Shown in pieces: positions 17,270 to 17,338 of a stretch of 32,000 bases of DNA (position 1 is the first letter of the stretch; each line of letters opens with the position of its first letter). A program made the translations under genes and the position numbers. The notes beneath the pieces were generated by a model. It saw nothing but the letters and a program-made list of their open reading frames with translations. It made no database searches and had not been told where the DNA came from. The stretch is from Faecalibaculum rodentium (GTDB taxonomy: Bacteria; Bacillota_I; Bacilli_A; Erysipelotrichales; Erysipelotrichaceae), in the NCBI RefSeq assembly GCF_001564455.1, contig NZ_CP011391.1:2160001-2192000 (forward strand), read 5' to 3'.

Positions 17270-17298
17270 ATCATATACCTCTCTTTAAACCATGACAA
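17270..17298 (-). promoter_or_regulatory. Predicted sigma-70/sigA promoter of the Cascade (cas8e-cas2) operon
   Basis: On the minus strand: TTGTCA (17298-17293), a 17-nt spacer, then TATGAT (17275-17270). An A/T-rich tract lies upstream. The predicted 5' UTR to the cas8e TTG is about 90 nt. Confidence 0.45.
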
Positions 17299-17312
17299 CA
17301 GAAAATACAATT

Positions 17313-17338
17313 AAAAAAAAGGAAGTTGCGAACTTCCT
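17313..17338 (-). terminator. Intrinsic terminator ending the cas3 / mini-CRISPR transcription unit
   Basis: The minus strand reads AGGAAGTT-CGC-AACTTCCT followed by a further seven T (an 8-T run counting the stem's last T; plus-strand A-run 17313-17320). Confidence 0.8.

Follow-up and report, generated by a model that had tools for sequence, protein, structure and literature searches.

Autorepression of the Cascade genes by a dedicated guide RNA is a mechanism already known for type I-E CRISPR-Cas systems. It has been shown experimentally for the I-E CreR of S. enterica, which matches its target over 15 consecutive nucleotides next to an AAG PAM and represses P_casA 8.6-fold (Liu et al., 2023; bioRxiv 10.1101/2023.03.10.532045). 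Mini-arrays aimed at the cas8 promoter have been reported for approximately 19% of the I-E loci of bacteria (Shmakov et al., 2023; PMC10120712). The Cascade of S. thermophilus (StCascade) can also be loaded with shortened guides, and with a 21-nt spacer it forms a smaller Cascade that makes R-loops, does not lock and does not license Cas3 (PMC6859484). Here we describe a mini-CRISPR within a type I-E locus that is very probably a CreR-type guide by which Cascade represses its own genes. The locus is a well-supported new example of this mechanism and not a new kind of system.

The minus strand of the window, by which we mean the whole 32-kb stretch of DNA analysed (32,000 nucleotides), holds a complete type I-E CRISPR-Cas locus as judged from NCBIfam hits (Table 1). 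Within this locus, cas3 and cas8e are separated by 291 nt. The 28-nt array repeat, CATGTCCCCGCACCCGCGGGGGTGATCC in crRNA sense, ends in GGGGGTGATCC, 39 of the 40 spacers are 33 nt long, the PAM is AA(N), and the cas gene set is that of type I-E; by these sequence features the system is S. thermophilus-like type I-E, of the CRISPR4 type. The S. thermophilus repeat, GTTTTTCCCGCACACGCGGGGGTGATCC, comprises a 7-nt 5' handle and a 21-nt 3' handle, and it ends in GCGGGGGTGATCC as does the repeat in the window (PMC3890593). The nearest named relatives of the Cas8e protein come from Faecalibaculum (79% identity), Allobaculum and Ileibacterium, which suggests a gut member of the Erysipelotrichaceae as the host. 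The canonical array, which is active-looking with its 40 spacers, was our source for the reference repeat and for the PAM test described below.

Some further features of the array region deserve mention in their own right. The Cas2 protein carries a fused 3'-5' exonuclease domain of the DEDDh (DnaQ-like) type (10650-11552, minus strand), and the first CRISPR repeat begins 14 nt past the stop codon of this fused gene (10636-10652), so that any leader must overlap the 3' end of cas2-DEDDh. Tandem repeat periods of 122 and 183 were called by TRF within the array, where several spacers are alike. Two records from human faeces labelled 'Bacteriophage sp.', MT835722.1 and MT838183.1, contain CRISPR arrays with repeats similar to the I-E repeat of the window, and these arrays are either phage-borne or part of bacterial contigs that were mis-binned.

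A stand-alone mini-array of two degenerate repeats lies inside the cas locus, both in the window and in 16 related loci. Read in the cas sense, the elements run from the -10 box of the predicted creR promoter (P_creR) through the first degenerate repeat (psiR1), the guide and the second degenerate repeat (psiR2) to the terminator. After this come the PAM with the target and then the cas8e promoter, which is followed by a leader of approximately 95 nt and by the TTG start codon with its Shine-Dalgarno sequence. The 7-nt 5' handle of psiR1, GTGATCC (17390-17384), is identical to that of the array repeat, and the psiR1 hairpin is kept with one A/C mismatch. In psiR2, the Cas6e-type hairpin CCCTGC-ACTT-GCAGGG (17357-17342) is preserved through a compensatory C>T / G>A exchange. 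This second hairpin is present at the canonical position in all 17 loci, and the 3' part of psiR2 is not conserved. An Rfam scan of positions 16500-18500 returned sub-threshold noise only.

Table 1. Features of the type I-E locus and its mini-array (positions are those of the window).
Feature	Positions	Strand	Basis or remark
cas3	17461..20232	-	NCBIfam; 5' of the mini-array
P_creR -10 box, TATAAT	17428..17433	-	predicted; read from the sequence; inferred part
long inverted repeat	17398..17443	-	15-bp arms 17443-17429 and 17412-17398; inner GGCTGC/GCAGCC stem
psiR1, degenerate first repeat, TATATCCCAGCACTAGCCGGGGTGATCC	17384..17411	-	22/28 match to the array repeat
pseudo-spacer (guide), GTAAAATAACGGAAGTTGCCA	17363..17383	-	21 nt, equal to 33 minus 12
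psiR2, degenerate second repeat	17335..17362	-	comparison with the array repeat
intrinsic terminator, AGGAAGTT-CGC-AACTTCCT then T-run	17313..17338	-	terminator scan and minimum-free-energy fold
target (protospacer), TTAAAAAAAAGGAAGTTGCGA	17311..17331	+	homologous sites in 16 other loci
PAM CAA (AA at -2/-1)	17308..17310	+	AA PAM backed by five protospacers of the window array
predicted cas8e (Cascade operon) promoter	17270..17298	-	-35 TTGTCA 17298-17293, N17, -10 TATGAT 17275-17270
cas8e (cse1)	15520..17169	-	NCBIfam; first gene of the putatively regulated operon
cas8e-cse2-cas7-cas5-cas6e-cas1-cas2/DEDDh operon	extends down to 10650	-	NCBIfam
canonical CRISPR array	8167..10635	-	41 repeats of 28 nt, 40 spacers

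Both promoters in the gap, P_creR and that of cas8e, are consensus predictions. The putative -10 box of P_creR is accompanied by a weak -35 (TGAATT at 17456-17451); we found no convincing -35 for it in the window, and the consensus promoter scan did not call P_creR. In those related loci that were read, TATAAT or CATAAT occurs approximately 35-60 nt 5' of the handle. The long inverted repeat lies 3' of the cas3 stop codon, includes the -10 box and overlaps the 5' half of psiR1, with which it pairs. It is seen in a fold of 17313-17450 (z = -7.5), and the window and the related locus L001 differ by a compensatory T/A change within it. In cas3 read-through transcripts this structure would sequester psiR1; alternatively, it could be a cas3 3'-end hairpin or an operator. 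Several other lineages have a short palindrome with TATAAT in its loop 5' of psiR1 (inverted repeats in L010, L140, L169 and L176).

The original prediction held that the guide matches a site 31 nt from the pseudo-spacer at 17 of 21 positions, with mismatches at positions 1, 7, 10 and 20 and with CAA directly before the match, and on re-reading the sequence all of this proved correct. The same is true of the 12 nt that it gave between the protospacer and the -35; the PAM lies 9 nt upstream of the -35. The promoter that had been put forward as the best one for cas8e, TTGTCA-N17-TATGAT, is the sole promoter-like site on the minus strand in 16900-17800. Across the 32-kb window, the 17/21 site is the top non-self match, the runner-up being a 15/21 match that has no AA PAM. 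No second AA-flanked site in the window has a complete seed (positions 2-6 and 8-9); in shuffled versions of the window, 0.135 sites of this kind arise. Within the cas3-cas8e gap, the observed score of 15/18 was reached by 1 of 500 shuffled guides. No other CreR targets, including any 5' of cas3, were found within the 32-kb window.

A single match of this kind could still be an accident. The mini-array might be the decaying remnant of an array, or hold a self-acquired spacer, and have lost any function, with a match that comes from low-complexity A/T tracts and a palindromic terminator; the target is indeed A-rich and sits in a T-tract or terminator, where partial matches arise more easily, and the guide in the window differs from that of its relative L005 by two substitutions, as if it were drifting. 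We gathered cas8e loci by exact-protein look-ups, a genome scan and a metagenome scan, which yielded 17 Erysipelotrichaceae-type loci with approximately 15 different guides, the window included. Their cas3-cas8e gaps measure 240-530 nt and every one has a mini-array. Most of the Clostridia relatives that the two scans returned have cas3 and cas8e nearly adjacent, with gaps of approximately 10-30 nt and without a mini-array, and so were uninformative. Three further candidates with longer gaps by tblastn (L079, L080 and L108) have neither handle nor hairpin and were dropped; the gap in L080 and L108 is an apparently divergent cas3 C-terminus.

We scanned both strands of each gap with the first 18 nt of its guide, weighting every position equally so that the search was unbiased. 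In 17 of 17 loci the best hit was an opposite-strand site that lies downstream of the mini-array and has NAA before it. With a background frequency of 0.134 for AA on the scanned strand, NAA in all 17 has a probability of approximately 1e-15. Mismatches are not spread evenly along the guide. At positions 1, 7 and 13 they amount to 38 of 51, or 75%, which is the neutral expectation, whereas at positions 2-6, 8-12 and 14-16 they amount to 6 of 221, or 2.7% (Fisher p = 6e-29). Positions 17-24 are mismatched at a rate of approximately 57%, and pairing stops near position 16-17. Reversed-guide decoys gave no PAM, no strand preference and no periodicity.

The guides themselves show next to no relationship to one another (mean identity 6.1/16). 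Nevertheless, of the 13 pairing positions, 10 agree with the target in every one of the 15 lineages and three in 12-14, with two to four different bases found per position. Unrelated guides with matching targets are what covariation looks like, and we read them as such. The arrangement has been kept over Cas8e proteins 43-79% identical to that of the window, and for most loci the observed scores are rarely reached by shuffles, although in L170 and L171 the match by itself is not significant (64-68 of 500 shuffles reach the score). Set against this record, and against the disparity between paired and unpaired positions, an origin as a relic or by chance is extremely unlikely, and the comparative sequence evidence identifies the target site as real.

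The spacing of the mismatches can be compared with what is known of Cascade. In the guides of type I complexes, one base in every six is flipped out and stays unpaired (PMC5904413). In E. coli, the PAM supplies the last base of the 29-nt repeat, and a review lists 29(28)/32(33)/AWG(AW) for repeat, spacer and PAM (PMC3890593). StCascade uses an AAN PAM and forms a 32-bp R-loop per 33-nt spacer (PMC10281945); from these two facts it follows that the N of the PAM corresponds to spacer position 1 and that the flipped bases are positions 7, 13 and 19. The mismatch pattern in our alignments matches the six-nucleotide periodicity of Cascade with its register shifted by one, as would be expected because the system is S. 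thermophilus-like, with a 28-nt repeat and a 33-nt spacer. The mismatches at positions 1 and 7 had originally been counted as a weakness in the seed. In the StCascade register, and by the mismatch counts given above, both are free, non-pairing positions in I-E systems of this repeat and spacer length, and the objection falls away.

Reading the window guide in this register, 15 of 17 pairing positions are matched at the target, the seed (2-6 and 8-9) is complete, and true mismatches remain at positions 10 and 20. The former, at R-loop position 9, is absent from the sister lineages L005 and L001, so pairing in the window is weaker than in these two, whose mismatches lie at positions 1 and 20 (L005) and at 1, 18, 19 and 21 (L001). 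In three metagenome contigs approximately 99% identical to the window (L088-L090), the PAM -3 base has changed from C to T (plus-strand position 17308), giving TAA; the AA, the guide and the target are the same as in the window.

The original prediction named AA as the PAM type of S. thermophilus I-E. As the PAM of the window system, AA now has direct backing from the array, in agreement with the AAN of StCascade. An IMG/VR contig, L177, contains perfect 33/33 protospacers of window spacers 7, 12, 17, 27 and 34, and the four bases upstream of these are AAAA, AAAA, CAAA, GGAA and CAAA, respectively, with AA present in 5 of 5. Of five single-spacer scans of IMG/VR, four gave no hit and the fifth gave L177, and with the whole array as query no protospacers were found in INPHARED, where the hits were limited to the two 'Bacteriophage sp.' records named above and a weak 28-nt match between Propionibacterium phages and a degenerate repeat that sits at the array's old end. 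L177 is a 10.9-kb viral contig in which three of the protospacers lie at similarly low coordinates on different strands. The first base of the 40 array spacers is T, C or G and never A, suggesting an AAB-like acquisition motif or a trimming rule. Position 1 of the 17 CreR targets is likewise never A (P = 0.0015).

The target lies on the other DNA strand, directly opposite the terminator's 3' arm and U-tract (17338-17313), as the original prediction had pointed out and as the terminator scan confirmed, and the pseudo-spacer is consequently able to pair with its own transcript. On this ground it had been considered equally possible that there is no DNA target at all and that the complementarity only serves RNA structure, in a helix that stabilises or hides the guide or tunes termination. 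Throughout the window clade (the window, L001 and L005) the target does coincide with the terminator 3' arm plus the U-tract. In L005 a 17-bp helix between guide and terminator is the predicted minimum-free-energy structure (-44.0 kcal/mol), and the A-run of the guide and the U-run of the terminator are equal in length, at 7/7 in L001 and 8/8 in L005. In the window, however, the corresponding helix lies 5.2 kcal/mol above the minimum-free-energy fold, in which the psiR2 hairpin and the local terminator are both retained. Moreover, outside the window clade the paired target lies wholly (in L009, mostly) past the terminator T-run and so outside the RNA. As all or most of the paired target is beyond the RNA in each of these lineages, the RNA-helix explanation fails as a general one. 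Nor does a helix predict the invariant AA, the mismatch pattern at positions 1, 7 and 13, or the fixed distance to the -35. We regard an account by RNA structure only as very unlikely, and an added RNA-level role as possible in the window clade only.

One such role can be sketched. In the window, L001 and L005, the guide is complementary both to promoter-proximal DNA and to its own terminator, and one sequence might thus act at two levels. At the first, an unloaded CreR precursor would hide its guide in an intramolecular helix; at the second, Cascade bound to the DNA of the creR terminator would make the production or termination of CreR, as well as read-through into cas8e, depend on how far the site is occupied by Cascade. 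On the sequences at hand this reading is doubtful, but if true it would amount to a second feedback layer that has not been described for CreR.

The position of the target relative to the cas8e promoter bears on what is being regulated. In 15 of 17 loci, the PAM lies -3 to +9 nt from the best -35, and in 15 of 17 the targeted promoter is the best promoter-like site just 3' of the PAM and 5' of cas8e. A guide of this kind could instead belong to a CreTA-type addiction module, in which its repression falls on a toxic RNA or small toxin gene situated between target and cas8e, in place of the cas operon or besides it. Within the leader of the window there is indeed a 45-codon ORF (17257-17120, minus strand) with GAGG 8 nt upstream and several AGA codons, but it is not conserved, as L001 and L005 lack both its ATG and its reading frame. 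Our search of the leader for toxins turned up just this ORF, RNA toxins being hard to exclude by sequence. Neither a separate terminator nor a separate transcription unit occurs between the promoter and cas8e, and it is the cas8e-proximal promoter that is targeted in the 15 loci above. With no conserved small gene in the window, L001 and L005, the toxin alternative raised by the original prediction finds no support in the clade, and we think it most improbable. A feature that speaks for it elsewhere is the long leader, 160-230 nt between the CreR-targeted promoter and cas8e, of L009, L101, L174 and L175. These four leaders open right past the -10 with a conserved, strong Shine-Dalgarno-like AAGAAAGGAGGT, have no obvious start codon at normal spacing after it, and contain further inverted repeats; their role could be that of a CreT-like RNA, of a leader peptide or of an element controlling translation.

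Under CreR-type repression of the cas operon, Cascade would have to bind its own chromosome without provoking an attack on it, and the length of the guide is instructive here. Guides of 21 nt are also found in L001, L140 and L176, that of L005 has 22 nt, and most others have 32-35 nt. StCascade with spacers cut by 6, 12 or 18 nt assembles and forms R-loops and never locks, since locking requires at least 28 bp (PMC6859484). The R-loop in the window would span at most 20 bp, and consequently no cleavage is expected. In E. coli, interference requires more than 18 bp and binding as few as 5 bp plus a PAM (PMC5904413). By analogy with these complexes, the complementarity at our locus is judged too short for interference. 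E. coli also provides a point against repression: off-target Cascade bound over short R-loops left transcription there without detectable change, and the repression of promoters fell with PAM-distal mismatches (PMC5904413).

All the sequence-level hallmarks of CreR are found in the window: a mini-array in the cas locus, a retained psiR1 handle and psiR2 hairpin, a PAM-flanked seed match, a target at the predicted cas promoter, and short pairing. From the anatomy, the match and the system's own PAM, and from the covariation, periodicity and geometry observed across relatives, we infer transcription, processing, binding and repression at the locus as follows. The cas3-cas8e gap would contain a creR-type gene of two degenerate repeats with its own predicted promoter and terminator. 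The transcript would be processed by Cas6e to a crRNA-like RNA of approximately 49 nt, in which the 21-nt guide is flanked by the 7-nt 5' handle GUGAUCC and by a hairpin handle, likewise of 21 nt. With this RNA on board, Cascade would recognise the AA PAM at 17309-17310 and from there open a partial R-loop of up to 20 bp that extends upstream through the DNA of the terminator and U-tract (17311-17331). Cas8e would thereby sit on or adjoining the -35 and the UP-element position of the cas8e promoter and keep RNA polymerase out. A guide that falls 12 nt short of a real spacer and whose pairing ends early would leave the R-loop unlocked, so that Cas3 would not be recruited and the chromosome would stay uncut. 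The outcome would be negative feedback, in which more free Cascade brings more repression and the operon is derepressed when Cascade is tied up by canonical crRNAs or anti-CRISPRs. That Cascade carrying the mini-array RNA could bind its own control region without cutting, after the logic of CreR, was the central proposal of the original prediction, and it is supported by covariation, PAM and geometry in approximately 15 lineages, by the AA PAM of the array and by StCascade biochemistry.

The S. thermophilus-like branch of type I-E has been used in much of the single-molecule work on Cascade. Our analysis extends CreR-type autoregulation to this branch as it occurs in gut Erysipelotrichaceae, and it predicts that cas expression in these bacteria responds to crRNA load and to anti-CRISPRs. 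Approximately 15 unrelated guide/target pairs share the AA PAM, three 5-nt pairing blocks, drift at positions 1, 7 and 13 and a stop near position 16, a pattern that separates Cascade-DNA targeting from RNA-RNA pairing without experiment and that sets the pairing register for 28-nt-repeat systems. The recurrence of 21-nt guides (33 minus 12) suggests that natural 'short Cascade' complexes serve as repressors. The comparative periodicity result is neat and useful, and it does not change the field.

Among described systems, the closest are the CreR of S. enterica and the E. coli-type I-E mini-arrays. As in these, a degenerate two-repeat element lies by cas3 and 5' of the Cascade operon, the psiR1 handle and psiR2 hairpin are kept, a PAM-flanked partial match is found at the cas8e/casA promoter, there is no apparent toxin, and the predicted function is an autorepression that senses free Cascade. 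Unlike the S. enterica CreR, the window locus is S. thermophilus-like, with a 28-nt repeat, a 7-nt handle, AA(N) instead of AAG as PAM, and pairing in the register 2-6 / 8-12 / 14-16. The guide in the window is just 21 nt long and its function is a predicted one, the PAM in our loci usually lies 0-9 nt from the -35 with the R-loop directed away from the promoter, and in the window clade the target coincides with the creR terminator.

The CreA/CreT pairs (CreTA) of the Haloarcula hispanica I-B system and its I-F analogues share the guide architecture and the principle that partial complementarity plus a PAM leads to binding without cleavage. However, CreA represses the promoter of a toxin, whereas the promoter targeted in the window would drive cas8e directly and the clade has no conserved toxin candidate. 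The engineered short-spacer StCascade (Songailiene et al., 2019) belongs to the same I-E sub-branch and gives the same arithmetic, 21 nt being 33 minus 12; those complexes are laboratory constructs with fully matched targets, and the guide described here is natural and partly matched.

Autorepression of Cas9 by the tracr-L RNA (Workman et al., 2021, as cited in the CreR paper) likewise relies on a non-canonical guide of limited complementarity, through which the effector comes to repress its own promoter, although there the effector is a class 2 single protein and the guide comes from a long tracrRNA isoform, not from a mini-array. The Cracr RNAs of phages (bioRxiv 10.1101/2024.10.29.618823) have short pseudo-spacers as well and aim at the promoter sites of the host's CreR; a viral mimic of the window guide was not found in our IMG/VR scan. 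Cracr RNAs are anti-CRISPRs of mobile elements, in contrast to the element described here, which is chromosomal and lies within the cas locus.
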